From positions 1 to 64,000 of the forward strand of contig OZ037842.1 of the NCBI GenBank assembly GCA_964035575.1: 64,000 nucleotides of DNA, read 5' to 3'. Positions 1,231 through 21,343 of this stretch are shown here, piece after piece. Origin of the DNA: Rhynchopus sp. YZ270_cl-10 (Eukaryota). Position numbers and translations under genes: made by a program. The number at the start of each line of letters is the position of its first letter. The first letter of the stretch is position 1. Under the pieces are notes generated by a model. That model ran no database searches. It was not told the DNA's origin and saw only the letters and a list, made by a program, of their open reading frames with translations.

Positions 1231-2777
1231 CTAATTATTACGGGTTTGAGGGGTACAAAATGGCGACGCTGCGGGATTGCTGGATCGCGTGGTCCCAGTA
1301 TTTCTGATATGACACTCCGGTAGACTGGGGCCCAAAAACGACGTAATGTACTGGGTTTGGATGTTAGCATTTTCTGGCAATATTTTAAAATTAAAAATGA
1401 GTACGAATACCCTGTACTACCATGTATTCTGTATAAAATAGCCGTAAAATTACGCCACATTTAACCACAACTACTCAAAATGTGAAATCTGTTGCTTTAA
1501 TGGACTCATAGAGCATTTTTATAACCTGGACATGGGGGTCAGATTCCACTTTAGAGCACCTAAAATTTGGTCAAAATAATTTTTTTTCACTATTTCTGCC
1601 TCTGGGTATCTAATTATTACGGGTTTGAGGGGTACAAAATGGCGACGCTGCGGGATTGCTGGATCGCGTGGTCCCAGTATTTCTGATATGACACTCCGGT
1701 AGACTGGGGCCCAAAAACGACGTAATGTACTGGGTTTGGATGTTAGCATTTTCTGGCAATATTTTAAAATTAAAAATGAGTACGAATACCCTGTACTACC
1801 ATGTATTCTGTATAAAATAGCCGTAAAATTACGCCACATTTAACCACAACTACTCAAAATGTGAAATCTGTTGCTTTAATGGACTCATAGAGCATTTTTA
1901 TAACCTGGACATGGGGGTCAGATTCCACTTTAGAGCACCTAAAATTTGGTCAAAATAATTTTTTTTCACTATTTCTGCCTCTGGGTATCTAATTATTACG
2001 GGTTTGAGGGGTACAAAATGGCGACGCTGCGGGATTGCTGGATCGCGTGGTCCCAGTATTTCTGATATGACACTCCGGTAGACTGGGGCCCAAAAACGAC
2101 GTAATGTACTGGGTTTGGATGTTAGCATTTTCTGGCAATATTTTAAAATTAAAAATGAGTACGAATACCCTGTACTACCATGTATTCTGTATAAAATAGC
2201 CGTAAAATTACGCCACATTTAACCACAACTACTCAAAATGTGAAATCTGTTGCTTTAATGGACTCATAGAGCATTTTTATAACCTGGACATGGGGGTCAG
2301 ATTCCACTTTAGAGCACCTAAAATTTGGTCAAAATAATTTTTTTTCACTATTTCTGCCTCTGGGTATCTAATTATTACGGGTTTGAGGGGTACAAAATGG
2401 CGACGCTGCGGGATTGCTGGATCGCGTGGTCCCAGTATTTCTGATATGACACTCCGGTAGACTGGGGCCCAAAAACGACGTAATGTACTGGGTTTGGATG
2501 TTAGCATTTTCTGGCAATATTTTAAAATTAAAAATGAGTACGAATACCCTGTACTACCATGTATTCTGTATAAAATAGCCGTAAAATTACGCCACATTTA
2601 ACCACAACTACTCAAAATGTGAAATCTGTTGCTTTAATGGACTCATAGAGCATTTTTATAACCTGGACATGGGGGTCAGATTCCACTTTAGAGCACCTAA
2701 AATTTGGTCAAAATAATTTTTTTTCACTATTTCTGCCTCTGGGTATCTAATTATTACGGGTTTGAGGGGTACAAAAT
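1231..2777. repeat. 379-bp tandem satellite, 4 apparently identical copies plus a 31-bp partial
   Basis: CTAATTATTACGGGTTTGAGGGG starts at 1231, 1610, 1989, 2368 and 2747. Confidence 0.98.
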
Positions 2778-3229
2778 TTCGACCGAGCGCACCCACCACG
2801 CGCAGCGTGGTGGGGGCGCGAGGGAGAGCGGAGCGAGCCTTTATGCGCAGCGTGAAGGCGAGTGGAGCACGGGGGGTCTGGGGGGGCAGTGCCCCCCCAG
2901 AAAAATTTTTGAAGTTAGGCAGTCCTGATTTAGGAGTTTTTTTGTAGATTTGTATGTATTTTTGGGTGAGGGAATGCTCGAGAGAGAGAACATATCAGTG
3001 AAGCGAGGAGGGTGCTCACCAGGATGTCAGGTACTTTAGGTAAGGTTACTGTGTTCGCGTTAGTAGTGTCAGAGCTATTTATACTCACAAGCGCCCTCTA
3101 TTAACATATGTAAGAGTCCTTCTACGTGTACATGCATGAGTAAGTGCAGGTAAATCTATGAGTAATTGCCTTTATAGATACATGGCTTTAAGACTACACC
3201 AAATTGAAATATGTGAAAGTCAGCATTTG

Positions 3230-4850
3230 CGGTGCTGAACCACACAAACCTGCCACAAAAAAGCGAGATAATTTGTAGACATTAGACTCAGAAATGATAT
3301 GGGGCCAAATGAGGTTCAAAACCAGCTCTAACCAATAGCTATCTGGTAGTACTCATTATTGGTAGTGGCCAAATAGTCTGTCTCTCAACCACACCTGAGA
3401 TGTCATGTTTCAGCGAGCTTTATTATAATGGAATATTATGGAAGAGTTTTTCTGGACTAAACCGGTCGGTACAACTCTCTGCCAATTTTTACCAAGACTT
3501 CTTACATACACATGTACCATTATCTACCATTACCTGAAGAGCAAATTATCTTCACACCCACACCGTGAAATAATCTACCGACTTTCTTCACTCCTGAATA
3601 TTATGAGCAAAAGTTCTGTCAAAAACCTGGCACTAAAAGCGAACTGCAGACGTATTTTTATGTTATTATTAGCGGAGGAGCCTTTGAACCACACCATCCT
3701 GCGACACATAATTTTTCTGAGAATCAGTCATTATTAGCGGCGGATCTAAATAGCCTAATAACAATCAGCCTGTTCTACATTAGCAGTGAATATAAGCGGT
3801 GGAGCAAAGTGCCTCTCAACCACACCCTCCTGCTCCTACATTTTAGCAACCTTTCTTCCATGCACAAATGAAATAAATCCGCCAACACTTTAGCAAACTA
3901 TCTTCTCTATTCGAATATGTCAGTATTAATATCATAGAAATAAAATAGTCTCTCATTGAGACTCAACCACATTATTCATTGAAAGATTTTGATTTTTGAT
4001 TCTCCGTAGTCTGTGCGTGCTGTGATGGGGTCAATTTACGCTGCGAAAAGGGTATATTCTTAACCTAAAAATGCATGTATCAGTTTTTATCCACCATATT
4101 ATTTACATGGTGAAACGTTGCGAGCTTTTTTCTCACATATTAGTGATATTGAGCCAAATAGGTTCACAACCACACCAGTCTGTTATGTGGCAGCATATTT
4201 GCTGCGTGAGCAAAATATCCAAATATTCAATAACACGAACCTGCTGTTTTTAGCATAATATTAGAAGCTACATCCTGTCGTAGATTTTATATCCTATACC
4301 CAAATTGTGAACCCAATATCTCCACAGTTAAGTGGTACGTGGGGAAACTCAAATGTCTTCTCACCCAGAGCCTCCTGCCAAATGTTAGTGTTAGAGCTTT
4401 CAATTTTCATAGAAATCTAAAAAATTCGTAGAGGAACAAATATTAGTATAAATTGCGTCAGATCCCAACGTTGCGCGCAGACCATGCCTCCGTTTGTGAG
4501 CTTTTCTGTACTACTACCACCAATGCCTCAACCACACCATTTTAGCAAGCTCTTTTCGCGTTTGTGGCCACACCAGCTTATTGCAGTCAATATTCTCTGC
4601 GGAGCCAAATAGCCTCTCAACTACACAAACCTGCTGTTTTTAGCAGTATTTAGTGCAATCAGTTGTTATTAGAGCCCAAATCCTGCCATAAATAAGCTGC
4701 AGAGCGAAATACCTCTAAACTACACCATCTTGCTACAGTTTATAACACGTTACTATAATCAATTACTCTGTACATATTAATCACTCATGTCAGCAGTATT
4801 CATAATAATTCACGGCGGAGCAAAATGCCTCATACCCACCCCATCATGCC
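3230..4850. repeat. Highly diverged minisatellite with core GCGGAGC(C/A)AAATAGCCTCTCAACCACACC
   Basis: Recognisable cores near 3366, 3672, 3797, 4151, 4520, 4599, 4699 and 4814, with irregular spacing of roughly 60-120 bp multiples. Confidence 0.7.
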
Positions 4851-4992
4851 TCATGCATGCTTTTCCGTGCCATTCAGGTTCTCCAGTGAATTTTAGGTTA
4901 CATTGCGTGTTTACATATCATTACTCATACCTTAATCGCATCAACACAAAGTAGGTATAACCAAACCACATATTAGCGAGCTTTCTTCTTGT

Positions 4993-5203
4993 GCGGGTTT
5001 GCGGGTTTGCGGGTTTGCGGGTTTGCGGGTTTGCGGGTTTGCGGGTTTGCGGGTTTGCGGGTTTGCGGGTTTGCGGGTTTGCGGGTTTGCGGGTTTGCGG
5101 GTTTGCGGGTTTGCGGGTTTGCGGGTTTGCGGGTTTGCGGGTTTGCGGGTTTGCGGGTTTGCGGGTTTGCGGGTTTGCGGGTTTACGGGTTTGCGGGTTT
5201 GCG
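4993..5203. repeat. Second (GGGTTTGC)n array, about 26 units
   Basis: Same octamer, again with one GGGTTTAC variant near its 3' end. Confidence 0.98.
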
Positions 5204-5959
5204 AAAAATACAATATCTCTCAGCAGGGAAGCATGGTCAACAACACATGGCCACTTATGCCCACCCACAAAGCACCAACGGAGGCGGCAGGTGCAACGAA
5301 AAACCACACCAACCAGATAACGCAACCTAGAACCTGCAGATTCCCGCACACCCACACCCACCAGCCAGCTTATCAACCACACCAACCAGATAACGTTGCC
5401 TGAACCCCGCGCACCCGCACAACCACCAGCCGGATAACGCAACCTAGAACCCGCAAACCCGCGCACCCGCGAACCCGCAAACCCGCACCAACCACCAGCC
5501 AGATAACGCAACCTAGAACCAGATAACGTGCCCGAACCCCGAGAACCCTATCAACCACACCAGCCGGATAACGCTGCCCGAACCCCGCGCACCCGCACCA
5601 CCACACCAGCCAGATAATGCAACCTAGAACCCGCAAACCCGCGCACCCGCGAACCCGCAAACCCGCACCAACCACCAGCCAGATAACGCAACCTAGAACC
5701 AGATAACGTGCCCGAACCCCGAGAACCCTATCAACCACACCAACCAGATAACACTGCCCGAACCCCGCGCACCCGCACCACCACACCAGCCGGATAACGC
5801 AACCTAGAACCCGCAAACCCGCGCACCCGCGAACCCGCAAACCCGCACCAACCACCAGCCAGATAACGCAACGTAGAACCAGTGAAGTGCCTGAATAGCA
5901 CCTGAATGGCCACACGAACCTGTAGATAATGACACAAACTAGGTCCAGTGTCTCTCAAG

Positions 5960-6547
5960 ATCGGTCACCAATATTGCCAGACTGGATTGGGTGCACATGG
6001 TGACATAGTGGTACCAAATCGGGTGCACAGGGTGCCCCCAAATGGTGCACAGGGTGCCTTTTGGGCTCTGAATCGGGTGCACAGGGTGCCCCCAAAATAA
6101 GGGTGCACAGGGTGCCCCTGAAAATCGGGTGCACAGGGTGCCCCCAAAAATATGGTGCACAGGGTGCCAATACGGGTTTGCAATCGGGTGAACAGGGTGC
6201 CCCCCACGTTATAAGCCCCGGCTAAAAAGCACCCTGTGCACCCGATTTTTTGGGGGCACCCTGTGCACCCGATCGGCACCCTGTGCACCCGAGTGGCCAA
6301 CGTGGGGGGCACCCTGTGCACCGGATTGCGAACCCATAATGGCACCCTGTGCACCGGATTAAAAGGGGCACCCTGTGCACCGGATTTGTAGGGGCACCCT
6401 GTGCACCGTTTTTTGCGGGCACCCTGTGCACCGGATCCAGTGCCAAAAAGGCACCCTGTGCACCTTTTGGGGGCACCCTGTGCACCGGATTTGGTACCAC
6501 TATGTCACCCTGTGCACCGGATTCAGGCTGCCAATATTGGTCACCGA
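5960..6547. repeat. Inverted array of the motif GGCACCCTGTGCACC (about 8 copies reversed, then about 11 forward)
   Basis: GTGCACAGGGTGCC repeats at 6023-6200 and GCACCCTGTGCAC at 6229-6517. The array is bounded by TCGGTCACCAATATTGCCAG and CTGCCAATATTGGTCACCGA. Confidence 0.9.
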
Positions 6548-7108
6548 GTTTGAGAAACTAGGTTACGGTCTCTGGCTAGTGGTTGTGCGGGTTTGCGGGT
6601 TTGCGGGTGCGCGGGTTTGCGGGTTCTAGGTTGCGTTATCCGGCTGGTGTGGTGGTGCGGGTGCGCGGGGTTCGGGCAACGTTATCTGGCTGGTGTGGTT
6701 GTGCGGGTGCGCGGGGTTCGGGCAACGTTATCTGGTTCTAGGTTGCGTTATCTGGCTGGTGGTTGGTGCGGGTTTGCGGGTTCGCGGGTGCGCGGGTTTG
6801 CGGGTTCTAGGTTGCGTTATCCGGCTGGTGTGGGGGTGCGGGTGCGCGGGGTTCGGGCAACGTTATCTGGTTCGTGGTTGCGTTATCTGGCTGGTGGTTG
6901 GTGCGGGTTTGCGGGATCCAGGTTGCGTTATCCGGCTGGTGTGGTTGTGCGGGTGCGCGGGGTTCGGGCAACGTTATCTGGTGCGGGTGCGCGGGAACCT
7001 GCTGGTTTAGGTTGCGTTATCTGGTTCTAGGTTACGGTATCCGGCTGGTGGTTGGTGCGGGTTTGCGGGTTTGCGGGTGCGCGGGTTTGCGGGTTCTAGG
7101 TTGCGTTA

Positions 7109-7110
<2 letters not shown>

Positions 7111-7144
<34 letters not shown>

Positions 7145-7590
7145 CCCCAGGCTCGCTTTTTTTATCTACATCCAGTGACAGAGGGGGTACTTACTAGTCA
7201 AGCGAGTATGTAAACAGCTAGATGTCCAGACAAGGGCACTTTACTATTGTACTGGCAAGACAGTGCCTGAAAACACAGTTAGTGGCACTAAAATAGAAAG
7301 CATGTGGGACAACTACAACCAACACTTCCCTGCAAATAAGCAAAAGGGTCGTATGTGAGTGCAATTTTTCCCAAAAGGAAAAGGGGAGGGGATGGGACGG
7401 GAGGGTTGCTCTGTCTACCGGTGTAGTTATATTTTGCTTTGTCTTGGGGAGGGGAGGGGAGGAGAAGGAGGGGATTGAGTGAGCCGTTTCCTCTGTAACA
7501 CACAAACAAATAAAAAGGAAGTTCCATAATCTTTTTAGTAGTTTTCTTTTTGGTGAAAATTTTTGAGAACTTCTGTAAGTGTGACCTGAC
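7111..7590 (-). mobile_element. 5'-truncated copy (3' UTR plus poly(A)) of the CRE-like retrotransposon
   Basis: A T32 run, then ~450 bp almost identical to 10244-10691. It is flanked by TTGCGTTATC at 7101-7110 and 7595-7604 (candidate target-site duplication, TSD). Confidence 0.92.
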
Positions 7591-8828: not shown

Positions 8829-8963
8829 GGACTGCCCTCAGAATATGTTTTCCTTGGTCAGAGGCTCCATACAGGTGAAAGGTGAAAAGTTTTCAAGCAG
8901 CAAAAAAAAAAAGTTTTGCCTGTGAAAGTCATAAGGTGCCAATCTCAAGGGCACCCTGTGCAC

Positions 8964-10000
8964 TTTTTTTTCTCTTTTATGTACTTGGTCTTTTTTTGTA
9001 TGTGAGAATAGAAGAAAGGAAAAAGGAAGAATGGAGTAAACAATAAAGACAATAAAATGAACAGGAAAATGGAAAAGGAAAAAGGAAATGAAAAAATGAT
9101 GACCAAAAAAGGTCGGTGTTTCAAGTTTTAGTATAAAAGGTGGGCGGTAAAGTAAAGTAAGTGGCCACTTCCTCCTAAACAAAACAAGAAACTGCATCGT
9201 GTGTTTGTTTTTTATTCTTTTTAATCAATTTGAATACACAGGCGTCACACTTATGGGGCAAAAAAAGGAAAAAAAGAAGACCTAATCCTCCTTACTTAAA
9301 AGAAGGGAAGGGAGAATAAAAAACACACGTGCCCATTGTTTCGTTGTCTGCAGGATGTCTTGTTTTAGTGCCTCACCTGGAAAAAGAAAAATGGATTCCA
9401 CTCAGTAAAAATAGCACACCTGTTGAACACACGTCAGGCCAGGAACAGAAGAAAAGCAAACGCTTCCACGAATGGAAGCAAAAGAAAAGTGTGGTGAAAA
9501 AACCCTTTTGGCCAAGGTGGTCTTGACTCTCTGTCTACATACTTTGGGGATGCATGAAAAAATGAAACTAGATGATAGATAACAAGGAGTGTGCGAGAGT
9601 GGCCCTTCTCCAAGCTAAACAAAAAGCAAACACCCTCCACCCATCTGATCCCGCCCACAAACACAAACAATCACGACAGAAAACAAAACAGGCAGAGGAT
9701 GACCAGGGTAGGTTTTACTTGGACAGCGAACCTCTGCCTTGATTCCTCTCACGCTCAGCAGGCGAGTAGGGACAGTTGCCTCAACTCTCCAGACCTGTGC
9801 TGCAACACAGGCCTGCACCTTTAGCCGCTTTTCGCTTCATGCCCCTCATCTGGCGCACTACTAACGGGGGACGCCCCATGTAGGCACATCGGTAGGATTT
9901 CGTCTTAACATAGTTTTTTGTGTAAAAAAAAATGAACCCCTGTAAAAAAAAATGAACCCCTGTAAAAAAAAATGAACCCCTGTAAAAAAAAATGAACCCC
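8964..10000 (-). mobile_element. Putative non-autonomous (SINE/RIME-like) retroelement, ~1 kb, non-coding
   Basis: It interrupts a block that is contiguous at 21115-21268, with CCCTGTGCAC duplicated at 8954-8963 and 9998-10007 and a short T run at 8964. Its minus-strand 5' end GGGGTTCATTTTTTTTTACACA resembles the large element's GGGGACCATTTTTTACACA. The first 20 nt are repeated 4 times (9921-10000). Confidence 0.7.
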
Positions 10001-10072
10001 TGTGCACCCTTTTTCGGGACCAAAAAAGGCACCCTGTGCACCCTTTCTCGGGGGCCAAAAGCACCCTGTGCA

Positions 10073-10117
<45 letters not shown>

Positions 10118-10184
10118 GCACACTACTTTGTGAGCGGAAAGTGTCACGTCGTTCACTCACCCAACCGTGCTCCGCAACACCACC

Positions 10185-10229
<45 letters not shown>

Positions 10230-11216
10230 GTGTTGTTCAACTTAGCCCTAGGCGCGCTTTTTTTATCTACATCCAGTGACAGAGGGGGTACTTACTAGTC
10301 AAGCGAGTATGTAAACAGCTAGATGTCCAGACAAGGGCACTTTACTATTGTACTGGCAAGACAGTGCCTGAAAACACAGTTAGTGGCACTAAAATAGAAA
10401 GCATGTGGGACAACTACAACCAACACTTCCCTGCAAATAAGCAAAAGGGTAGTATGTGAGTGCAATTTTTCCCAAAAGGAAAAGGGGAGGGGATGGGACG
10501 GGAGGGTTGCTCTGTCTACCGGTGTAGTTTTATTTTGCTTTGTCTTGGGGAGGGGAGGGGAGGAGAAGGAGGGGATTGAGTGAGCCGTTTCCTCTGTAAC
10601 ACACAAACAAATAAAAAGGAAGTTCCATAATCTTTTTAGTAGTTTTCTTTTTGGTGAAAATTTTTGAGAACTTCAGTAAGTGTGACCTGACCCGACTGAC
10701 TGACACCCAAAGGGGAAAACAACAATAACGCACAACAAAATCAACAACAACAATGGTGGGTCTCGTGCTTACCTGTGGTGGTTTTGAAAAATGAAAAATT
10801 GAAATTGACCTTCACAAGGTAAAAATGAAAAACTAAAGGAGTGAAAAAAGGAACTCAAAGGACAAGAGTTCTGTACAAACTCTACTCTACTGCACAATCT
10901 ATAAAAGTGGCCCAATGGCTCCTGATGCCACTGGCCTGGCTCTTAGACAGGTCTTACTCCGAGACTGCCCTCTACCCTCAGAGCCTCGTCCAAGGGGTAA
11001 GGGCCGTCGCTGGGGTAGACCCGTCCTAGCCAGCAGCCAACCAAAAATATTAACAAATAGGAAGGGGGGCGGAAAGGGGGGAAAGGGGGGGCAAACCCCA
11101 AAGGATGAAAAGAACCAAAAACACAAAATAAAAAGGGTTAAAAATAAACATGGGGCAAACTGTCATTCTCTACACGCTTCTACACACACACTCTCACCCT
11201 CTAACTCTCTAACTCT

Positions 11217-14200
11217 CTAATTCTTTTTATTCCCCTTTTTCCCCTTCCTTCCTCCGCTCTGTCTCCCCTTCTGTCCACCACCGCGACCATTGCGCCCTCT
11301 CTGCACCTCCTGGGGCGAGAGCACATGCTGCGTCGCTTGTGCCACTGCGTCGGTGAACACGTTCGACGTGTTGGACCTACCCTGAGCTGCATGGCGCTGG
11401 GGTCCTTTGGGAGCTGGGGAAGGAGCAGGTTGGGCGGAGGAGGTTGCATTGCCACGGCCTGCCGATGAGGAGGAGGAAGAAGTGGAGACTGCAGGTTGGG
11501 CGATGGAGGTTGTAGTGCCACGGCCTGCAGAGGTGGAGGAAGAAGAAGAAGAAGAAGAAGAGGAGGCTTGAGGTTGTCGGCCTATTCCCTCTCGAGCCGC
11601 TCGTGCCTCATTCTCCCTCCTTGTACTCTCCGCTGCAAAGGCCTGCCCCCTACTGCTCCGGTTGTCCGTCAGGGCATGCAACGTCGACTTTGCCTTGCAC
11701 TTTTCCTGAACCGACCACTCATGCAAACCCACCACCTTCATCACCTCATACCACTGAGTGAAAGTAGCGGTAGAGAGGGGGAGTGACAACAAGGGTCTGC
11801 CATCCTGTTTCTCTCCCTGACGGTAGTGGAACAGGGAGATCCACTTCGTCACAGAAGAAGGCACCGGCGACCCCATGGTGAGGCACGGGAAAAGACCCCC
11901 CCTCTCCGTCCGCTCCTCCTCCGTCCACATCCAAGCCTCGCTCTGCGCCCTCAGCAATTCCCTCACCCTCGCTTGCTTCTTCTGGTCAGGGATGCCTTCC
12001 ACTGACAGAGAATGCGAGCGATCCGCCCCCTCCATCGCGGTGTCGAGGTCCTCCTCCTGCTCCTGCTCATCATCATCCATCTCCTCCACCTTCACACGCA
12101 CCTCGGTGTCTGCCGCCTCGGCCTGTCGCCCCACCTCCTCCTCCAGCTGATCCCGAGAAGGGGTTCCCCAGCTGACCCTGCCTTCCCGAACGACGATGAC
12201 CGCGCTGGTCTTGCCCCAGGTATCGCAGTATCCGGCCTCCCCTGCTATCTTCCTAACCGCCTGACGGGCGACCACCGACTCCGGGCAATCACCGTCCCCC
12301 TCCCCGTTCCCACTCCACGGCTGCTGTGTCGCCCAGCAGTACAGGAACTCGCCCGGGCACGGAGAAGCACCTTGAGGACCAAAGAGAGCCATCCAGTCGC
12401 CGACACAGTCAGGTTCAAGTCCTTCAGGGTCGTCGCCCACCGCTCTCCGCACCGCATGGCAGGGGAGGAATAGCCGCCCTTCGCACACCACCCCAAAGCA
12501 CCGCCCGTATGCCACCATGCGTTCTGCCTCCAGCTGTCGGGAGAGGTTCACCGCCGTCAACAACAGAGTGGTCGCCTTCTGCTCCGACTCATGCTTAGCT
12601 GCGATGGCGTAATGCCTCTCGCAGCGTTGCCTGTCATACTCCGCCCGGAGCGACTCTCCTGCTTCGGGGTGCCGATCGCAGTCTTCCAAGTACTGCGCAT
12701 GCATCTTCTTCGCGTCCTCTGCGAGTTCCCGCTTGTGCCTGGCGGTCAGCTCCTCCACACGATGCCTGTCCGCCGCCTTCGCCTGGTCCAGACGCACATT
12801 CTGTTCCTCCAGGAAACGACTCAACTCCTGCTGGCGGTCGCCAAAAGTGCCCCGAAGCGCGGCCAAATCCGGTCCCCACGACCGACGATGCTCCCGCCGT
12901 ACCTCCAGGGCTTGCTGCCACGCGTCCGACGCACGCTGCAACGCTTCCTTCTTATCCTGGTCCGCCTTTTGTTGTTGCTGCTTCTGCTGTTTCCGTTGCT
13001 TCTCGTGCTTCTGCTGCTTCTGTTCTGCCTGCTGCCCCTCTTCGCCCGCCATTGGCGTGTCTACCTCCTCGACGTCCTCGCCCTCGGGAGCTGGCACTGC
13101 TGGAGAAGGAGCCCGTTTAGGTGGTGGGTCTCCGCTCCCCTCCGCAGAGGCAGCCTGAGCCGGAACATTCGAGTGCAAAAAAGACAGGGCACTGAAGTAT
13201 TCCGCCCTGCCAATTTGCGACAGAGGGCAGTGCTTGGACCCCTGAGCGCAGTGCAGACATGCCAAGCCACCACACGTGTGACAGCAGAAGTGTGCGTCCG
13301 ACGCATCGAAGAGCTTGCTGCATTGTTCGCACTGCAGGAAAGTGTTCGACGCCTCCGCCTCCCTCGCTCCCACAAAAGCCATGGGGCGCTCTGACTGGCA
13401 CTCCCCCTTACCACCTGTGGCCTCAAAAGACAGGATGTGCTGCTGCAGAGCCGGGTCCATGGTGAGGGGCTCGTAGTGTCCCGGGATACTGCCGGATCCA
13501 TCTGCCGCATCCTGATCACCCGAGTGGAGGAGAAGGACCACTGCCTTAGGCCGTTTTCTTGGCACCATCAGAGAAGGGCGGGCGAACTCGTTGAGGATGA
13601 CCACAGATACCTCAAGAGCCTCCCCTGCCCCCGCCACTGCAATGGCATCCGCCCACGTACGCTGGTCTCCTCTGTCCCCACTCGTCATCAGCCGCTGCCA
13701 GACCCCAAAATTAGGGACAGCCGCACTCGACAGATCAGCGCGGCCCTGGACCTTCTTCACTGCCGCCTGGCGCAGACCCTCCACCGTCAAATCCGTGCGC
13801 CCGGTGGCGAAGAGCAAAGCCTCAAAAGCACAGTCCCCCGCCACAAACGACCAAGTCACCTTCGAGGCTCCCAGCTTGGCCGCCTGCTCCGTCGCCCGAG
13901 GCCTCTGCGCTGCCGGGCACTCACGCAAAAACTCCCACTCACGCACCACATCGAGACCAGGCCCTTCCGGAATCACGGTGGCCGAATCGAACCTCCCGGT
14001 CCGCTTCCTCGGTGGCTCCACGTGGTCCGGCTTCACGTCCCTCTTGCGCTTCCCCTGCTGCTCCTCCGTTCGGTCTGCAGGACGACTCATATCGTCGTCA
14101 GGGTTCGCATCGTCACAGAGAGGTTCCACGGCCCCTGCACTGCGGCGTCCAAACCGGTCCATGTCCTCTGCAGACGGTGCCACATCTACCTCCACACACG

Positions 14201-17200
14201 GCTCCCGCTTCAGGGTGGCAATCCCTACACACATAGCACCCCGCTCCAGAAAGGAAGATGCGACCTTTTTCTGGTACGCCACCGCAATGCTCTCCCGGAT
14301 GCGCAACTCTGCCGACCCTGTCAGGTGCGACGTCTGTCCCGTCGTCAGGCCTCCAAGCTGCGCAATCAAGAGGTTCGCCTCGTCGCCTGCACCCCCGAAG
14401 GCTTCAAACACAATAGGGGAGAACTTGGTATTGATCTTGTTCAAATCCCGCTCGTGCTTCTCCCGTTTGACCTGGCCCTGGTTCTTCGCCGACCAGCCCA
14501 CAAACTTCGAGGCCCCTGTTCTGTAGGAAGGCAAGGTGGGGCACACGTGGGTGATGTCCAAACAACGAGGTCCATTTTCCGCCACTCCTACTGGGAGGTA
14601 GACGTCGCCTGGCCGCTTCTTCGACTCCAACTCCACTCGCACGGTCTCCTCCAAAGCAGGGTCCAAGCCCGCCCCTTGAGCAGCTCGGTACACCGAATCC
14701 CGCAAGGCGTTGTGGCGGGCGACGCGGTGTTTGGAGTAGGGGCAGCCAAAGGTGTGGTCGCCAAAGGAGTCCATGACAACCCTTTTCTGCCCCCCCTGAC
14801 ATGCCGAGCAAGTCGTTCCCTCCGCATGGATGGCCACCCCTAGTCGGAAACGGGTCACAACCGCAAAATCCGCTGAAGACATCTGGTTCCTTGCTGAGGG
14901 TGTCGCCGTGAGGTACGTCCCGGAAAGCGGCAGGAGAAGGGACTTCATCCGTGCTCGGTCTCGCATGCAGAGCTGTTGCATCAACTTGTCTGCCTGGGCG
15001 TCAATCACCGCAGATGACAGACTCTGCTGCTCCAGGATCTTCTTCGGCTGGGCCCTGTCCACGTGAAACGCCACCGGTACCCTGGAGTTGTACTCCTCAG
15101 CCGCGCTGTTCCATCTCTCCTCATCCCAGGTGAAGGCAGGGTCCAAGGCCTGCGACAGTTGCAGGTTCCCTGACTGAGAGGCGAGGGACGCAGCTGTCCG
15201 ATGGTCCACGGTGCGACGGATACCCAGCCCCCCAAGCGCCACAGGAAGCGCCGCCTGCGCCCTTGCCAACTCCGGCAGCGCCCCATCCGGGTCATGCAGA
15301 AGCGCAGCCAGGCACCTGTCGATCAGGTCGTCAAAGGCCGTCAGGTACTCCGCGCACTGTGGGATCCCCCGCATGTAGAACACCATGCGGCAGTAGCCTT
15401 CGCAGTATCTCAGTACGTAGAAGGCTGCCTGGGAGTCCCCGAGGTCCACAAGGGCTTCCAGGTTGCGGCGGGAATCGTCCACCTTCTGGGCCATGTACTC
15501 CTCGCAGAAAGCCACAGACCCAATGGGGATGCCCAAGAAGTCGAACCCATCCACATCCAACAGCCGGAACCCGCCTTCACCCATGGCGTCCTGTCCACCC
15601 TCGTTCAACGTGAACCCCACGGCCTCGAGATCCTCCTTGGAGACGCCACCAGTGGAGATGAGCTCACACTTGTTCGCGTTCACCTCCAACCCCAGTTCGG
15701 AGCTACGAGTGCACAGAACCTGGTACGCCTCAAAAACCGCCTTAGGGGACCCCCGCAGAGAGCCGTCATCGAGGTACCACAAAGTCCCATCCAGGCCTGG
15801 GTGCCCCTTCAGCTCTAGCGCCATCTGGTGGATGGTCAGGGAGAAGAGAAGCGGGCCCAAGGGATCTCCTTGTTGAGCTCCGCGCTGTGACCTTATGGTA
15901 TCCCCACCATAAAACAGGCTGGAGGGCTCCAGGTAACACCATCGCACCCATGGGGCCAGCTCGGGGAGGTTCGCGTCGACCGCTCTTAGCATCGACAGGC
16001 GGTCTACGCAGTTGAACGCGTTACGGTAGTCAATTTTCAAAATGACTTTACCTTTTCCGCGGTTGCGCACGGCGTACTGCGAGATAACATCAGTCGCCAC
16101 TGCCGCCCCCCTTGCCGTTGCCACCCCCACCTGGTTCCCTCGAAGAAGAAGCGTCCTAGCAGGCACCCGCACTCGCGCCGACAGAATCTTTCCCACCAGT
16201 CTGCGGAGAGTGTCCCCAACCGCAATCGGTCGCACGTCCTCCTCCAGGCCCGGCCCCTTTGCAGGCTTCCGGAGAGCCACCAAGTTAGCGCCGGCGAAGA
16301 ACTCAGCCACCTCCACTGGAGCATTTCCTCGTGCCAAAGACGTCAACACTGCGGCCAGCGCTGCCAAAGTGCCCTTAGCCCGCCTCTGTAGGCAAAGTGT
16401 ACGAAGGTGCGCGCCCGTCACGTTCGAGGGACCCGCCGCCGATGACTTCGGCATGCTCCGCAGGGCCTTCATCACCTCCACCACTGTCACCGGTGGGACC
16501 TCCTGAGGCTGGGGCCAATCCGCCTGCTCCAGGGCCTTGGAGTCGGCAGCGGCTGGGTGCTTCGTCTGAAGCTTTTCCAGCGTCGCCGGTGTCTGTGGGG
16601 CGAGGCCGTCGCTGGTAGCGCATGACATGGCCTGGCTCGGGAGTCCTGCTCTCGCTTTGGCGATGGTGCGCTTCCGTCTCCCTTCGTCAGTGTCTTCATC
16701 CGACCACCCCGAGGGCCTTGGCTTCCGCTCCTCTACCGTTTGCTCCCACAGGGCGACATACTGGCCAGCCTTCCAAGCCTCCAAGTCCTTCCCCCAGGTG
16801 CTCGTCAAACGTCGCTCCTGGTCCTTGCCCCCTCGTTCTGTCCGTGTCCGGTGCAACACTGTGAAGAACAGTGCAAGGCGCTTCCAGGCCACCTCGTCCT
16901 GGTACTCCAGGATGTCCATGAGGACCCTCAGGAAGAGCTCGCTGTACAGCTGTAGGTGTTTGTCTGGGCACCCGCCCTTCAGCTGGATCCTGGTGGTCCC
17001 CATGACTTCAAAGGAGGGGAGGTCATCCTGATCTGTCAGCATTCCTCGACTGGAGGGAGACGGAGCGGTGAAGCCTTCTTCGCCAAAGTGCACCGTACAG
17101 GTGTTGCAGACCTCCTTGCTCTGCGGCAATAGCATGTCGCACTGATCGTTCGCACAGCGCGACATGCCCAAGTGGCCCAACAGCTCGTCGGGGATGTACG

Positions 17201-18872
17201 CTCCATCCGCCTGGTGGCGACGCATATGCTGCAGCAAGCCCTTACGAGACAGGCCCCCGACCGCATCACTCGAAGACAAAATTCCCGCTCTGCATCCATC
17301 AAAGGGGCAGAACACCCGATCCGCATTGATGTGCCCCAGCTTGGTAGCCAGGGGGGCGGTGGTGGTGGTGTTGGTGGGGATGATGCCATCCAAATGCGCT
17401 GTGTCCAGCACTGCCTGCCGAGCCTCCTTCCTCATCTTCTCTGCCATCCCCTCCTTGGTCTTCCCCACCTCCGGGACAAGCTCCACTGCCTCAAAGTGAG
17501 AGTCACAGAGAGCGATGACGACCGTGGGAAGTTTCGCTTGGAAGCTCTCCGCGTACGACTTGGCGACTCTTTTGCTACCAGGGGTGATGCGCACGAGGGG
17601 GTTCTCTTCCGACGCCTGCACCACCACGATGTTGATGCGGGATGCTGTCGCGGTGAGCTGAAGCCCCAAGTGGTTGAGGTGGGCCTCGCCGGTCACACCA
17701 TTGGCAAACTCCGTCATGGCCTCCTGCGACCCCAGCACCTGCACCAGGCGGTTCGACACCTCCACTGCTGTGTCATACAGCTGCTTGCGCATTGCCCTCA
17801 CGTCCGGCTGCGTGTCGTGGTCCCAGAGGTGTAGTGCCACATAACCACAATCATTAGTAGACACGTTGGGGATGCGTTTAGCTCCAAACTTCGCCAGAGT
17901 CGCGTCCACAGACACCGCCTGCTCTGTATACGCAGGAGCGTTCACGTTTGCGCACCCACCGGTCAACGCAAACGGGGACAAGCTTACCGGGTGCTCCGGA
18001 TCAGCAGGGGCAGGGCGCAGGTCCCAGGGCGTCACCGCTCGCCACAACAACGACAGCAAGACCAGTAGGGACACCGCCAGCATGCCAAATGCCATCCCGA
18101 TCCTACGAGTCCACCTGCGTGCTGCCACACGGCGCACCTCCAAGAGAAGAACCCAGCCAAGTGGGCGCGCGACGCCGACCAGTGCCACAAAACCCGCCAA
18201 ACAACCACCTGCGGACCATGCAACCCACACCCACTCGGCTGCACGCACCGACAACTGACCCACCCCCATCACACTGGCTCTCACCAAGCTGGCAGCCACT
18301 CGGATCCCTCCGGTCCATCGGTGCACTCGCTCGCTCGCCCCTTCCAGCCACCGCCACCCCCTGCGTGCGCGGCACAGTCCCCGCAGCAGACCCACCCCCA
18401 GCACCTCCGCGTCCCGAAACAGCGCACAACCCAAAGCATGTGGCGCTGACCTCCCAAGCTCAGACCCCACAAAAACCAGAACCCAGATGGCCACACACTG
18501 CAAAGCACCTCTCAACGCATCGGCGACCCTGATCCTGCGGAAAACTGGGTGCGCTGCCGGGGAGGGCGGACGATTGCAGGGCGCCTTGCGCCGACGGAGC
18601 CTGCCCGCCTGTGACTTGGTCCAGTTCAAGGACCGGTGTCCTCGTCGCGTCCTCCTGGTCCTCCTGCCCACCAGCCACAAAATGAGATGACTGAGGGTAG
18701 GGGCGCGTCTGTCCTTCCACAGATCCAGGACCGCGAACGACACAAATACTCCCCACTCAGGTGCCTCGGCTACCCAGCAGGGGTCAGGCTGACGCAAGGA
18801 GGTGAAGACCTCCCAGAGGTTGCACGGTGTGAGTCGAACCAAAACTCTATCTGTACACACCCCTTTTGCCAC
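11217..18872 (-). CDS. Retrotransposon polyprotein: OTU-like protease, zinc fingers, reverse transcriptase, restriction-like endonuclease, second OTU-like protease, Cys-rich finger, coiled coil
   Basis: RT motifs RPIAVGDTLRRLVGK, KIDYRNAFN, GAQQGDPLGPLLF, WYLDDG (~15762-15779). RLE motifs CSAC..DHTFGC, RHNALRD, RPGD..LDITH..KREKH..PIVFEAFG. C2H2 finger CPFDGC..HMRRH. OTU-like NDCGY..SHF and GDCAF..WAD..GHY. The annotated start is GTG and the first in-frame ATG is at 18269, so the true start is uncertain. Confidence 0.95.
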   Translation of the reverse strand: MAKGVCTDRVLVRLTPCNLWEVFTSLRQPDPCWVAEAPEWGVFVSFAVLDLWKDRRAPTLSHLILWLVGRRTRRTRRGHRSLNWTKSQAGRLRRRKAPCNRPPSPAAHPVFRRIRVADALRGALQCVAIWVLVFVGSELGRSAPHALGCALFRDAEVLGVGLLRGLCRARRGWRWLEGASERVHRWTGGIRVAASLVRASVMGVGQLSVRAAEWVWVAWSAGGCLAGFVALVGVARPLGWVLLLEVRRVAARRWTRRIGMAFGMLAVSLLVLLSLLWRAVTPWDLRPAPADPEHPVSLSPFALTGGCANVNAPAYTEQAVSVDATLAKFGAKRIPNVSTNDCGYVALHLWDHDTQPDVRAMRKQLYDTAVEVSNRLVQVLGSQEAMTEFANGVTGEAHLNHLGLQLTATASRINIVVVQASEENPLVRITPGSKRVAKSYAESFQAKLPTVVIALCDSHFEAVELVPEVGKTKEGMAEKMRKEARQAVLDTAHLDGIIPTNTTTTAPLATKLGHINADRVFCPFDGCRAGILSSSDAVGGLSRKGLLQHMRRHQADGAYIPDELLGHLGMSRCANDQCDMLLPQSKEVCNTCTVHFGEEGFTAPSPSSRGMLTDQDDLPSFEVMGTTRIQLKGGCPDKHLQLYSELFLRVLMDILEYQDEVAWKRLALFFTVLHRTRTERGGKDQERRLTSTWGKDLEAWKAGQYVALWEQTVEERKPRPSGWSDEDTDEGRRKRTIAKARAGLPSQAMSCATSDGLAPQTPATLEKLQTKHPAAADSKALEQADWPQPQEVPPVTVVEVMKALRSMPKSSAAGPSNVTGAHLRTLCLQRRAKGTLAALAAVLTSLARGNAPVEVAEFFAGANLVALRKPAKGPGLEEDVRPIAVGDTLRRLVGKILSARVRVPARTLLLRGNQVGVATARGAAVATDVISQYAVRNRGKGKVILKIDYRNAFNCVDRLSMLRAVDANLPELAPWVRWCYLEPSSLFYGGDTIRSQRGAQQGDPLGPLLFSLTIHQMALELKGHPGLDGTLWYLDDGSLRGSPKAVFEAYQVLCTRSSELGLEVNANKCELISTGGVSKEDLEAVGFTLNEGGQDAMGEGGFRLLDVDGFDFLGIPIGSVAFCEEYMAQKVDDSRRNLEALVDLGDSQAAFYVLRYCEGYCRMVFYMRGIPQCAEYLTAFDDLIDRCLAALLHDPDGALPELARAQAALPVALGGLGIRRTVDHRTAASLASQSGNLQLSQALDPAFTWDEERWNSAAEEYNSRVPVAFHVDRAQPKKILEQQSLSSAVIDAQADKLMQQLCMRDRARMKSLLLPLSGTYLTATPSARNQMSSADFAVVTRFRLGVAIHAEGTTCSACQGGQKRVVMDSFGDHTFGCPYSKHRVARHNALRDSVYRAAQGAGLDPALEETVRVELESKKRPGDVYLPVGVAENGPRCLDITHVCPTLPSYRTGASKFVGWSAKNQGQVKREKHERDLNKINTKFSPIVFEAFGGAGDEANLLIAQLGGLTTGQTSHLTGSAELRIRESIAVAYQKKVASSFLERGAMCVGIATLKREPCVEVDVAPSAEDMDRFGRRSAGAVEPLCDDANPDDDMSRPADRTEEQQGKRKRDVKPDHVEPPRKRTGRFDSATVIPEGPGLDVVREWEFLRECPAAQRPRATEQAAKLGASKVTWSFVAGDCAFEALLFATGRTDLTVEGLRQAAVKKVQGRADLSSAAVPNFGVWQRLMTSGDRGDQRTWADAIAVAGAGEALEVSVVILNEFARPSLMVPRKRPKAVVLLLHSGDQDAADGSGSIPGHYEPLTMDPALQQHILSFEATGGKGECQSERPMAFVGAREAEASNTFLQCEQCSKLFDASDAHFCCHTCGGLACLHCAQGSKHCPLSQIGRAEYFSALSFLHSNVPAQAASAEGSGDPPPKRAPSPAVPAPEGEDVEEVDTPMAGEEGQQAEQKQQKHEKQRKQQKQQQQKADQDKKEALQRASDAWQQALEVRREHRRSWGPDLAALRGTFGDRQQELSRFLEEQNVRLDQAKAADRHRVEELTARHKRELAEDAKKMHAQYLEDCDRHPEAGESLRAEYDRQRCERHYAIAAKHESEQKATTLLLTAVNLSRQLEAERMVAYGRCFGVVCEGRLFLPCHAVRRAVGDDPEGLEPDCVGDWMALFGPQGASPCPGEFLYCWATQQPWSGNGEGDGDCPESVVARQAVRKIAGEAGYCDTWGKTSAVIVVREGRVSWGTPSRDQLEEEVGRQAEAADTEVRVKVEEMDDDEQEQEEDLDTAMEGADRSHSLSVEGIPDQKKQARVRELLRAQSEAWMWTEEERTERGGLFPCLTMGSPVPSSVTKWISLFHYRQGEKQDGRPLLSLPLSTATFTQWYEVMKVVGLHEWSVQEKCKAKSTLHALTDNRSSRGQAFAAESTRRENEARAAREGIGRQPQASSSSSSSSSSTSAGRGTTTSIAQPAVSTSSSSSSAGRGNATSSAQPAPSPAPKGPQRHAAQGRSNTSNVFTDAVAQATQHVLSPQEVQRGRNGRGGGQKGRQSGGRKGKKGNKKN

Positions 18873-20337
18873 ACCCGCATCATCACACAGCCACTCTGTC
18901 CTTCTCGCCCCGCAAGGCTGACCCCGAACACCAGCATACCTCGCTCACCACCCCCTAGGTTGTTGTCGCTGATGTTGTTGCTGCGTCTGCTGTTGATGTT
19001 GGTGCTGCTGTTGGACCTGCTGTTGGAACTGCTGCTGGAACTGCTTTTGGAGACGCTGTTGGAACCGCTGCTGCAGAAGTCTGTGGAACTGCTGTTGAAA
19101 CTGCTGTTAAGCCTACTGTTGGAACTGCTGTTGGACCTGCCGTTAGAGCTGCTGCCGCAGAAGTCCTTGCTGATGAAACTGCTGTTGTGCCTGCTGTTGT
19201 GCCTGTTGCTGGAACTGCTTTTGGAAACGCTGTTGGAACTGCTGCTGCAGAAGCCATTGGAACTGCTGTTGAAACTGCTGTTGTTGTGCCTGCTGTTGGA
19301 ACTGCTGCTGGACCTGCTGTTGGAACCGCTGCTGCAGAAGTCTGTGGAACTGCTGTTGAAACTGCTGTTAAGCCTACTGTTGGAACTGCTGTTGGACCTG
19401 CCGTTAGAGCTGCTGCCGCAGAAGTCCTTGCTGATGAAACTGCTGTTGTGCCTGCTGTTGTGCCTGTTGCTGGAACTGCTTTTGGAAACGCTGTTGGAAC
19501 TGCTGCTGCAGAAGCCATTGGAACTGCTGTTGAAACTGCTGTTGTTGTGCCTGCTGTTGGAACTGCTGCTGGACCTGCTGTTGGAACCGCTGCTGCAGAA
19601 GTCTGTGGAACTGCTGTTGAAACTGCTGTTAAGCCTACTGTTGGAACTGCTGTTGGACCTGCCGTTAGAGCTGCTGCCGCAGAAGTCCTTGCTGTTGAAA
19701 CTGCTGTTGTTGAGCCTGCTGTTGGAACTGCTGATGGACCTGCCGTTGGAGCTGCTGCTGCAGAAGTCTTTGGAACTGCAGTTGAAACTGCTGTTGTGCC
19801 TGCTGTTGGAACTGCTGCTGGAACTGCTTTTGGAAACGCTCGTGGAACTGCTGCTGCAGAAGCCGTTGGAACTGCTGTTTAAACTGCTGTTGTGCCTGCT
19901 GTTGGAACTGCTGTTGGACCTGCTGTTGGAACCGCTGCTGCAGAAGCCTTTGGAACTGCTGGTGAAAAAGCTGTAGAGCCTGCTGTTGGAACTGCTGCTG
20001 TAAAGGCCTTTGGAACTGCTGCTGCTGCACACCAGGGGTGATACTGGGACCCCACCCAGGACTCCGAAGATTTCGTTTTTGCTGCTATCACAGTTGCAGC
20101 CACTGATGTGGTTGGGCATACATTGCCTCTTTTTGGGGATATCATGGAGGGAAGGGGGGTGTGGGTTGTTATGACAACAGTTCTTTGCTTTGTTGCCTCC
20201 ACACACGTTTTTGTTGCTGCTATCAAAGCTGCAGCTGCTTGGGTTGTTGGGCTCAAGAGGCCTCTTTTTGGGGTAAAAAAGGGGGGGAAGGGGGCTCCTG
20301 CTACTGCTGTTGATGCAGCTTAAGTTGTTGCTCCTGT

Positions 20338-20378
<41 letters not shown>

Positions 20379-20827
20379 TTGTTGCTGCTGCTCTTGTTGC
20401 TGCTGTTGCTGCTGCTGCAGTTGCAGCTGGTGTAGCATATGTTGTTGCTGCTGTTGCTGCTGCTGCTGCTGTTGCTGCTTTTGTTGCTGCTGTTGCTGCT
20501 GTTGCTGCTGTTGCTGCTGTTGCTGCTGTTGCTGCTGTTGCTGCTGTTGCTGCTGTTGCTGCTGTTGCTGCTGTTGCTGCTGTTGCTGCTGTTGCTGCTG
20601 TTGCTGCTGTTGCTGCTGTTGCTGCTGTTGCTGCTGTTGCTGCTGTTGCTGCTGTTGCTGCTGTTGCTGCTGTTGCTGCTGTTGCTGCTGTTGCTGCTGT
20701 TGCTGCTGTTGCTGCTGTTGCTGCTGTTGCTGCTCTTGTTGTTGCTGCTGGTGTAGCTCCTGCTGCTGCTGCTGATGCAGACATGCAGCACCACCCACAA
20801 CGCCCCCAAAAGGGCCTTCCTCCTCAT
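18770..20827 (-). CDS. Possible ORF1 of the retrotransposon, 685 aa, Ser/Asn-rich low complexity with a signal-peptide-like N terminus
   Basis: First ATG downstream of the SL/ribozyme (20827, MRRKALLGALWVVLHVC). The frame stays open through all repeats and overlaps ORF2. It could equally be a by-product of CAG/CAA-type repeats. Confidence 0.35.
19010..19990. repeat. 261-bp tandem repeats made of 12-bp subunits (CTGCTGTTGGAA) in the element's 5' region
   Basis: CTGTGGAACTGCTGTTGAAACTGCTGTTAAGCC at 19081, 19342 and 19603. Confidence 0.9.
20330..20775. repeat. (GCTGCTGTT)n / CAG-CAA triplet tract
   Basis: The 9-bp period is pure from ~20482 to 20733 and degenerate on both sides. Confidence 0.97.
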
Positions 20828-20881
20828 TTTTAAAAAAGCAAAAACCAAAAAACGAAAACAAAGAAGGACAAGACACACTAC

Positions 20882-21033
20882 GCCTTGCGCTTCGCCGGCC
20901 TGCACTCCTCTACCGTTGCCCAGGGACCGCCCCGTGGAGGCGTACAAGGCTCACAATAAAACAAAGGAAAGGGGGAGGGAGGGAGGGTAAAAAGAAAGGA
21001 CAAGTGTGTTGTAATGTGTAAAAAATGGTCCCC
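20882..21033 (-). ncRNA. HDV-like self-cleaving ribozyme (predicted fold)
   Basis: Minus strand: P1 GGGGACC (21033-21027) / GGTCCCT (20928-20922) with a G1-U wobble. J1/2 is ~76 nt and pyrimidine-rich. P2 GCCTTGTAC (20950-20942) / GCGCAAGGC (20890-20882), P3 GCC/GGC, L3 TCCACGG, P1.1 CC/GG, then GCAAC, a short P4 and J4/2 GGCGAA (catalytic C equivalent at 20894). Confidence 0.88.
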
Positions 21034-21071
21034 AATGAAGTACAGAAACTGTAGCTTTAGAAATCGTTGGT
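21033..21071 (-). other. Spliced-leader (SL) exon sequence, diplonemid type, not followed by an SL intron
   Basis: Minus strand reads ACCAACGATTTCTAAAGCTACAGTTTCTGTACTTCATTG (39 nt). It closely resembles the Diplonema SL exon as I recall it (AACCAACGATTTAAAAGCTACAGTTTCTGTACTTTATTG) and the kinetoplastid SL 3' half. The next bases are GGGACC, not GT. Confidence 0.9.
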
Positions 21072-21343
21072 GAAAAAAGGTGAAAAAGGGTGAAAAAAGG
21101 TGAAAAAAGGTGAAAAAAGGTGAAAAGTTTTCAAGCAAAAAAAAAAGTCTTGCCTGTGAAAGTCATAGGGTGCCAATCTCAAGGGCACCCTGTGCACCCT
21201 TTTTTGGGACCAAAAAAGGCACCCTGTGCACCCTTTCTCGGGGGCCAAAAGCACCCTGTGCACCTTTTCAAAATCCAGTTCCGGGGGGTTTCGGGAGAGT
21301 TTCGTGCAGTGGGTTTTCAGGCACCCTGTGCACCTTAGATACC

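Follow-up and report, generated by a model that had tools for sequence, protein, structure and literature searches.

Ribozymes of the HDV type have been reported at the 5' ends of several groups of non-LTR retrotransposons, namely R2, R4, L1Tc/ingi, RTE and Baggins. In the L1Tc/NARTc/ingi/SIDER group the ribozyme, Pr77, cleaves at nucleotide +1 of the element (PMC4035085, PMC5814959), and in R2, where cleavage is at the element end, junctions vary and contain short duplications (PMC3774820). CRE1, SLACS and CZAR carry a reverse transcriptase (RT) and a restriction-like endonuclease (REL), a poly(A) tail and an internal repeat region (PMC12278014), and CZAR and SLACS insert between nucleotides 11 and 12 of the spliced leader (SL) (PMC5814959). 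The literature examined, as far as its text was available, reports no ribozyme for these three elements. In dinoflagellates, retroposition of SL-capped RNA has been described (PMC5585692).

The window analysed here, 64,000 nucleotides of contig OZ037842.1 from Rhynchopus sp. YZ270_cl-10, contains on its minus strand an element of approximately 11 kb, a CRE-type non-LTR retrotransposon from a multicopy family that is headed by an HDV-like fold and, in this copy, by an SL exon (Table 1). With the L1Tc group it has in common that a dispersed non-LTR element, in a euglenozoan whose transcription is polycistronic, carries an HDV-like fold at its extreme 5' end. Unlike it, the L1Tc group belongs to the APE-type ingi clade, has a compact ribozyme of 77 nucleotides and produces transcripts described as unspliced and without SL, whereas the window element has a C-terminal REL endonuclease, a pyrimidine-rich J1/2 of 76 nucleotides and, in one copy, an SL at the predicted cleavage-site nucleotide G1. 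Like R2 it is an REL-type element with a 5' HDV-like ribozyme fold, but the target of R2 is 28S rDNA, from which it takes P1 in many species, while G1 of the window element is its own. The arrangement of RT, REL, poly(A) tail and internal repeats is that of CRE1, SLACS and CZAR, from which the window element differs in lying outside an SL gene, in lacking an SL duplication after the poly(A) and in its much longer open reading frame. Finally, as in relict DinoSL retrocopies, where an SL exon at the head of a genomic copy marks a retroposed trans-spliced RNA, an SL exon heads the copy; here, in contrast, it would be the RNA of the retrotransposon that was retroposed, spliced at the very position where the ribozyme is predicted to cleave.

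Table 1. Features of the element, its 5' end and its surroundings in the window.
Feature	Positions	Strand	Basis or remark
5' flank: dispersed repeat of GTGCACAGGG type, outside SL genes and present again in the 3' flank	21116..21268	-	sequence comparison
About 5.8 copies of the 10-nt target-repeat unit, expanded at the 5' junction	21072..21126	-	other flank: one full and one shorter unit
Nucleotides 2-40 of the host SL exon	21033..21071	-	contig continuations and arrays of a related species
P1 5' strand; starts at G21033, predicted G1 of the cleavage site and 5' end of the family	21027..21033	-	helix check, starts of other copies
J1/2, 76 nt, 79% pyrimidine, candidate polypyrimidine tract	20951..21026	-	sequence, folding
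Predicted second trans-splice acceptor: first AG following G1, where P2 starts	20950..20951	-	AG-context count
P2 5' strand, P3, L3, P3', P1 3' strand, P1.1 GG	20920..20950	-	helix check, Rfam model
GCAA, then short P4	20896..20919	-	helix check, variant list
J4/2 with predicted catalytic C20894, P2 3' strand	20882..20895	-	helix check, Rfam model
ORF from first ATG after G1 (20827); hydrophobic N-terminus, long Ser/Asn-rich repeats	18770..20827	-	ORF reading
2575-aa frame; RT aa 901-1140, C-terminal CCHC/restriction-like endonuclease motif aa 1379-1447	11217..18944	-	domain search, motif
3' UTR and poly(A), A41 at 10228-10188	10188..11216	-	sequence
Unexplained 72-nt piece and second A41	10075..10187	-	not SL exon or intron
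3' flank: 5'-flank repeat again, interrupted by a second insert (about 1040 nt)	8878..10078	-	sequence comparison
5'-truncated second copy, 3' UTR and A32, in another repeat, no SL adjoining	7111..7590	-	sequence comparison

The succession that marks CRE elements, an RT followed by CCHC and an REL motif of the form RHN..E..R/KPD and by a poly(A) tail, is present in the window element; its RT is matched by RVT_1 at E 2e-15, and its REL motif has a longer C-H spacer and reads RPGD when compared with the consensus in PMC12857005. The protein is 29% identical over 893 aa (E 1e-83) to that of the SL-embedded CRE-type locus L048, as against E 8e-9 or weaker for solved R2 and L1 proteins, and E 2e-5 or weaker for solved R2. 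No named CRE protein was found among the relatives in our sequence searches and the CRE assignment rests on the motif and on the likeness to L048; in this form, the initial annotation of a CRE-like retrotransposon is supported. The protein belongs to a cluster of 187 members; two sister families, with 36 and 30 members, stand at about 52% identity, and no relative was found in viral_contigs. In the window copy the upstream ORF and the RT frame are out of frame near 18830, but in P0002 the final stretch of the first ORF's frame is continuous with that of the RT, which indicates that the window copy is frameshifted near this position and that the upstream ORF is likely the start of a single long ORF in intact copies.

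Besides the hydrophobic N-terminus and the Ser/Asn repeats, the protein encoded by 20827-11217 (-) has several hydrophobic segments before the RT, and it carries two motifs resembling OTU proteases at about aa 365 and 1704, with PF02338 precomputed for the sister P0003. To our knowledge, a protein of this build is unusual for CRE elements. Note also that the start of the 72-nt piece between the two A41 runs (10187-10116) is able to base-pair with the nucleotides immediately preceding the first of these runs.

The 5' end folds into a complete HDV-like structure, beyond what chance would be expected to produce. HDV ribozymes share a G1 wobble, an L3 with U..G, and a catalytic C together with A's in J4/2, and judged by this consensus and by the Rfam model the G1 wobble, L3 and the C in J4/2, C20894, are all present. 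As annotated at first, P1 (21033-21027/20928-20922) pairs at seven of seven positions including the wobble G21033-U20922, and P2, P3, L3, P1.1 and GCAA follow in the HDV order: P2 (20950-20942/20890-20882) forms eight of nine pairs and P3 three of three, L3 reads TCCACGG, P1.1 is CC/GG followed by GCAA, and P4 is short, with four pairs (20915-20912/20899-20896), so that P1, P2, P3, P1.1 and P4 stand in the order of the double pseudoknot. Within approximately 400 nucleotides upstream, G21033 is the sole perfect P1 partner, the five candidates with six of seven pairs all lying in the flanking repeat. A strict descriptor has a single match in the window, at G21033, and none in 300 block-wise dinucleotide shuffles; a looser one also finds only this core, and matches in 3 of 40 shuffles.

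Rfam gave no match at gathering score, and the best match in 20700-21300, below threshold, was an HDV family, HDV-F-prausnitzii (RF02682), with 24.6 bits against a cut-off of 44 and E 0.022, which places the sequence outside RF02682 at the gathering threshold. Pseudoknot-free folding assigns P1 and P2 a near-zero probability and prefers other helices, one of them an alternative P2 at -9.7 versus -10.5 kcal/mol for P2; the minimum free energy z-score of 0.42 is uninformative, as pseudoknots lie outside the model. The helix closing J1/2 is weak (-3.0 kcal/mol). Three in-core variants were listed for the family, all inside the 11-nt P4 loop (probability 0.003 if uniform), which favours the fold weakly in so young a family; there is no compensatory change among the variants listed, the letters of divergent copies falling below a 1% share. 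Across 80 metagenome CRE-like loci, of which about 20 have at least 1.5 kb upstream and most are without a 5' end, the HDV descriptor had no match, and neither did Rfam on such loci (16 searched at gathering score, 2 more at E up to 1). Pairing of the SL to the P4 loop as a regulator was considered and rejected, as 677 of 2000 shuffled SLs pair equally well.

Directly before GGGACC, the minus strand at 21071-21033 reads a 39-nt stretch resembling an SL, whose last G coincides with G1 and whose 14-nt core has its sole match in the window here. We examined it with contigs aligned to the stretch from 6 of 13 matching public runs (denoted by X and a number), two of which, X6 and X10, cover the exon only; the listed pieces comprise all 5 of X7 and 8 of 12 of X5, and the 24 runs listed include none of RNA and so have no bearing on expression. 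In runs from four studies the exon continues, with loose ends at 21032, into an intron that starts with GT (23 contigs in X1, 17 in X3, one each in X7 and X6). Upstream, with loose ends at 21071 in 13 contigs of X1 and 5 of X3, there is one extra A and then constant promoter-side sequence. Agreement across SL-exon contigs is 0.92-0.95 on the intron side and 0.97-0.99 on the promoter side. SL arrays of a related species, which sit among U1, U2, U4, U5, U6, 5S and SRP genes, contain a 40-nt exon with the same start and GT donor as in the host in 31 of 31 copies. It is thus a multicopy gene with a GT donor after the exon, as expected for a euglenozoan SL. Given the extra 5' A in the contigs and the 31 related SL genes, the window holds nucleotides 2-40 of an exon that is likely 40 nt long: the annotated 39-mer is the host's real SL exon minus its first base. 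The reported union of an SL exon and an HDV-like fold is therefore borne out by the minus-strand sequence, the helices and the contig continuations. The table row 'Euglenozoa 14' we take to be the Diplonema leader. Among the rows compared it is the one closest to the window exon (PMC3795323), and in D. papillatum the SL exon is given as 39 nt, its gene arrayed with 5S and U2 (PMC10161547). The leader therefore points to a diplonemid host.

The first three nucleotides of the SL stretch are shared with the target repeat, a microhomology, and could equally stem from it; with the first base missing, the copied part of the SL may thus begin as late as nucleotide 5. Other SL-headed pieces with unrelated flanks occur in X1 and X3, with loose ends at 21033 and 21034 before and at 21069, 21070 and 21078 behind, and in other dispersed SL pieces of these two runs the exon start likewise lacks 2-3 nt. 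Cap-4 chemistry is known for the SL of trypanosomes, and the 5'-short pieces are consistent with reverse transcription halting at a methylated cap. From the pieces with unrelated flanks, SL-capped RNA appears to have been retroposed in this lineage. No contig among those listed from the six runs bridges SL exon and element; contigs show presence and not absence, and the junction need not be private to this copy. The longest piece in the SL-junction region is 40 nt, and depth is flat over 21008-21025 in X1 and 20999-21025 in X3.

Where other copies of the family begin was found in three studies, and in each the 5' end lies at 21033 behind a flank that is not SL. Six contigs of X1 stop matching there and go on to repeat the first 17 nt of the element in tandem, a T-run and CA standing before this repeat; the distal T-run is taken from the longest of the six, the median loose end being 19 nt with an agreement of 0.89. 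Piece 27 of X7 starts at 21033 behind a purine-rich flank ending in A, and piece 17 of X5, from the main contig, aligns over 20780-21033 with five unmatched letters left. G21033 is hence the family's own first base. The annotation had made the last base of the SL the predicted cleavage-site G; the positions do coincide, but the base belongs to the family and is present in copies without SL, so that P1 does not require the SL. A family starting at G1 agrees with predicted self-cleavage 5' of G1, as in L1Tc and Drosophila R2, where the element starts at the cleavage site (PMC5814959, PMC3774820), and the ribozyme likely defines the family's 5' end. In X1 and X7 the flank ends in A, and G1 thereby completes an AG, a candidate acceptor.

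The surroundings of the window copy are repeats. The 3' flank matches the 5' flank at 98.8% over 81 nt and 91.5% over 94 nt, which may stem from duplication of a long target or from two occurrences of a common repeat; the empty site continues from loose ends at 21116 in X1, X3 and X5. The window copy lacks an SL promoter upstream, its poly(A) is followed by neither an SL piece nor an SL intron, and neither of the two window copies shows the signature of SL-gene-specific CRE elements, a location in an SL RNA gene with the SL duplicated after the poly(A). Both lie outside SL genes. The second insert in the 3' flank, 10000-8965 (-), is non-coding and about 1040 nt long, with an A-rich tail and a duplication of approximately 10 nt of the GTGCACAGGG target. 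At its beginning a 20-nt unit similar to the terminal 17-mer of the main element is repeated about four times. The terminus of this second, unrelated insert, four U-rich units ending in CA before GGGG, has the same design as that of the main element, and no ribozyme was found in it. Further away, positions 1-7100 begin with 154 copies of the 8-nt unit GGGTTTGC and also contain a 379-nt tandem and degenerate arrays, and may represent the end of a chromosome whose telomere-like repeat is non-canonical; 25898-53067 (-) holds a cluster of receptor-like genes, three with SBP_bac (bacterial-type solute-binding) domains, one with Bmp and an adenylate/guanylate cyclase, and one more cyclase.

Taken at the level of sequence, these data are probably best explained by a dispersed CRE-type copy with a ribozyme-defined 5' end that captured the SL by trans-splicing at an AG whose G is G1 and was then reverse-transcribed uncut. 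Copies would be read through from host transcription and cut 5' of G1 by the ribozyme, and new copies would start at G1. Where an A precedes it, in X1 behind a T-rich run and C, G1 would become the G of an AG acceptor, and addition of the SL there would swap the acceptor G for the SL's last G, leaving four G's, an intact P1 and a U at position -1. The number of G's fits such a replacement: with a G at the end of the SL and four at the start of the family, the window shows four and not five, as an end-to-end join of the SL to cleaved RNA would have given. With its long, weakly paired J1/2 and competing helices the ribozyme is likely slow, so that escape from cleavage is plausible; long HDV-like ribozymes without a stable J1/2 helix are up to approximately 1000-fold slower, full activation lying above about 4 kcal/mol (PMC4908430). 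One SL-capped RNA would thus have escaped and inserted into a dispersed repeat, its copy being frameshifted since. For the normal mRNA, splicing is predicted to use the AG that lies within the ribozyme, 20951-20950; P1 would then be lost, and a capped mRNA with ATG 20827 as its first start would result. The acceptor at G1 itself may be accidental, since any flank ending in A makes an AG.

Of the two origins first offered for the fusion, trans-splicing at AG|GGGACC agrees with the flanks of the other copies, which are not SL, end in A before G1 and in X1 show a pyrimidine run and CAG. The other origin, by which the family resides in SL RNA genes where the exon ends, is transcribed together with the SL from its promoter and releases itself, the window copy stemming from an uncut co-transcript, has become weak, and we hold it to be decidedly unlikely. 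It draws on the insertion of CRE, SLACS and CZAR in SL genes (PMC12278014, PMC5814959), on the ability of R2 ribozymes to take P1 from the host target (PMC3774820), on the GG that is also found at the SL exon-intron border, and on L048 and L059, where an SL exon is fused directly to the CRE 5' end. In these two loci (L048:4690-4860 and L059:3185-3350) CRE-type elements stand in tandem with a kinetoplastid-type SL exon, and poly(A) is followed by SL sequence and then by the next element, in line with CZAR/SLACS insertion; the window copy, unlike them, has no SL after its poly(A). A few contigs of X1 also speak for it: three have an A-rich end before the SL exon, and one (depth 796) reads, over 21032-21071, exon, GT, A6 and exon again, perhaps a nearly empty insertion with SL duplication, so that some element may insert at SL genes. 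Against it stand the non-SL repeats around both window copies, the copies that start at G1 behind non-SL flanks in three studies, and the SL-exon contigs, which for the most part continue into intron and promoter side. As an observation apart, L048 and L059 have a conserved two-hairpin RNA directly after the exon, with compensatory differences and z-scores of -3.2 and -2.2; it matches neither the HDV descriptor nor Rfam and is a candidate 5' processing element of SL-targeting CREs.

A template switch, in which the RT finished a self-cleaved RNA at G1 and jumped to SL RNA, an SL-capped mRNA or an SL gene through a microhomology of one or two G's, copying the exon, seems unlikely to us. A jump at the GG of the SL exon-intron border would likewise give four G's, SL sequence is abundant in the runs, the family has other odd 5' junctions (tandem 17-mers in X1, 10-mers in the window), and R2 junctions include a putative template jump (PMC3774820). 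Yet the junction falls exactly at the exon end, as expected from splicing but not from a jump, five G's would result if a jump or ligation had joined the molecules end to end, and acceptor-like flanks are already present at G1 in X1. That the fold is degenerate or inactive, the G1 end owing its position to a promoter, to trans-splicing or to microhomology with the target, and the SL being the element's normal mRNA cap, we consider very unlikely: the Rfam score below cut-off, an L3 ending in G, the competing helices, the lack of compensatory changes among the variants listed and the inactivity of some well-folded trypanosomatid HDV-like candidates (PMC4035085) would agree with it, but all helices and conserved bases are present, none of the 300 shuffles has such a match, and copies without SL start at G1, as a cleavage product would. 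An assembly chimera of SL repeat and element is suggested by the highly repetitive region and is highly improbable all the same, as promoter sequence would be expected to come along with a joined SL gene, while here the exon stops at nucleotide 2 with microhomology to the target and the two flanks match each other.

Within the preferred reading, trans-splicing at G1 followed by retroposition, the SL fusion fits an event in one copy and looks like a single-copy relic; an SL-ribozyme coupling as a design or switch of the family, as initially considered, is less likely. We doubt that selection has made the 5' end an RNA switch that alternates between trans-splicing and self-cleavage. If it were one, a duplicated U-rich terminal unit, or insertion at CA|GGG, would rebuild a U-tract and CAG acceptor whose G is G1; capping by the SL would spare the ribozyme, whose later cleavage would decap the mRNA and turn it into an RT template, and the second acceptor, with the ribozyme's own J1/2 as its tract, would give a ribozyme-free mRNA. 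This second acceptor has an unusual context: J1/2 has no internal AG, and the AG-free 50-mer before 20951-20950 is 90% pyrimidine, a value of at least 80% being reached at 6 of the 4055 minus-strand AGs of the window. No SL joint to 20950 was seen among the contig continuations listed, from runs of unknown kind. Were the switch real, it would be the first case of a ribozyme integrated with an acceptor of the spliceosome, and the window copy would be its fossil.

SL exons were also seen in unexpected surroundings elsewhere. Giant-virus-like contigs (three of IMG/VR; L081-L084, L105-L107, L109, L111-L113) contain euglenozoan SL exons of the full 39 nt, five in one contig of 237,777 bp and one each in two others; seven of nine pattern matches are full-length, L108 and L110 holding the core only. 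Each viral exon lies approximately 15-20 nt behind an A-rich AAAA(T/A)TGAA motif, presumably the Mimiviridae-type early promoter, and none is followed by a GT donor. In the four cases examined an ORF of 186-593 aa starts 35-65 nt downstream; the neighbours include one Pox_VLTF3 and one downstream gene with a methyltransferase domain. The arrangement suggests that these viruses may hard-code the host leader into their mRNAs, and the available part of the literature searched contains no report of virus-encoded SL exons. Eukaryotic arrays of SL RNA, snRNA, 5S and SRP genes were further found inside bacterial genome bins (L085-L104, L093) and are likely contamination.

As to novelty, the literature searched, which was covered in part and included PMC12278014, PMC3636483, PMC12857005, PMC6765202 and PMC4035085, contains no ribozyme of the CRE clade. 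Within the same partial coverage no ribozyme coupled to SL trans-splicing was found, in agreement with the earlier remark that such a coupling is undescribed in this clade. That the SL fusion is a relic in a single copy limits the surprise it holds. If active, the ribozyme would extend the strategy of 5' self-cleavage to an early-branching clade of non-LTR retrotransposons, and it bears on the question of how uncapped, self-cleaved retrotransposon RNA is translated: in a host with SL splicing, the element offers two exact candidate acceptors, G21033 and G20950, in place of the IRES proposed for R2 and L1Tc.
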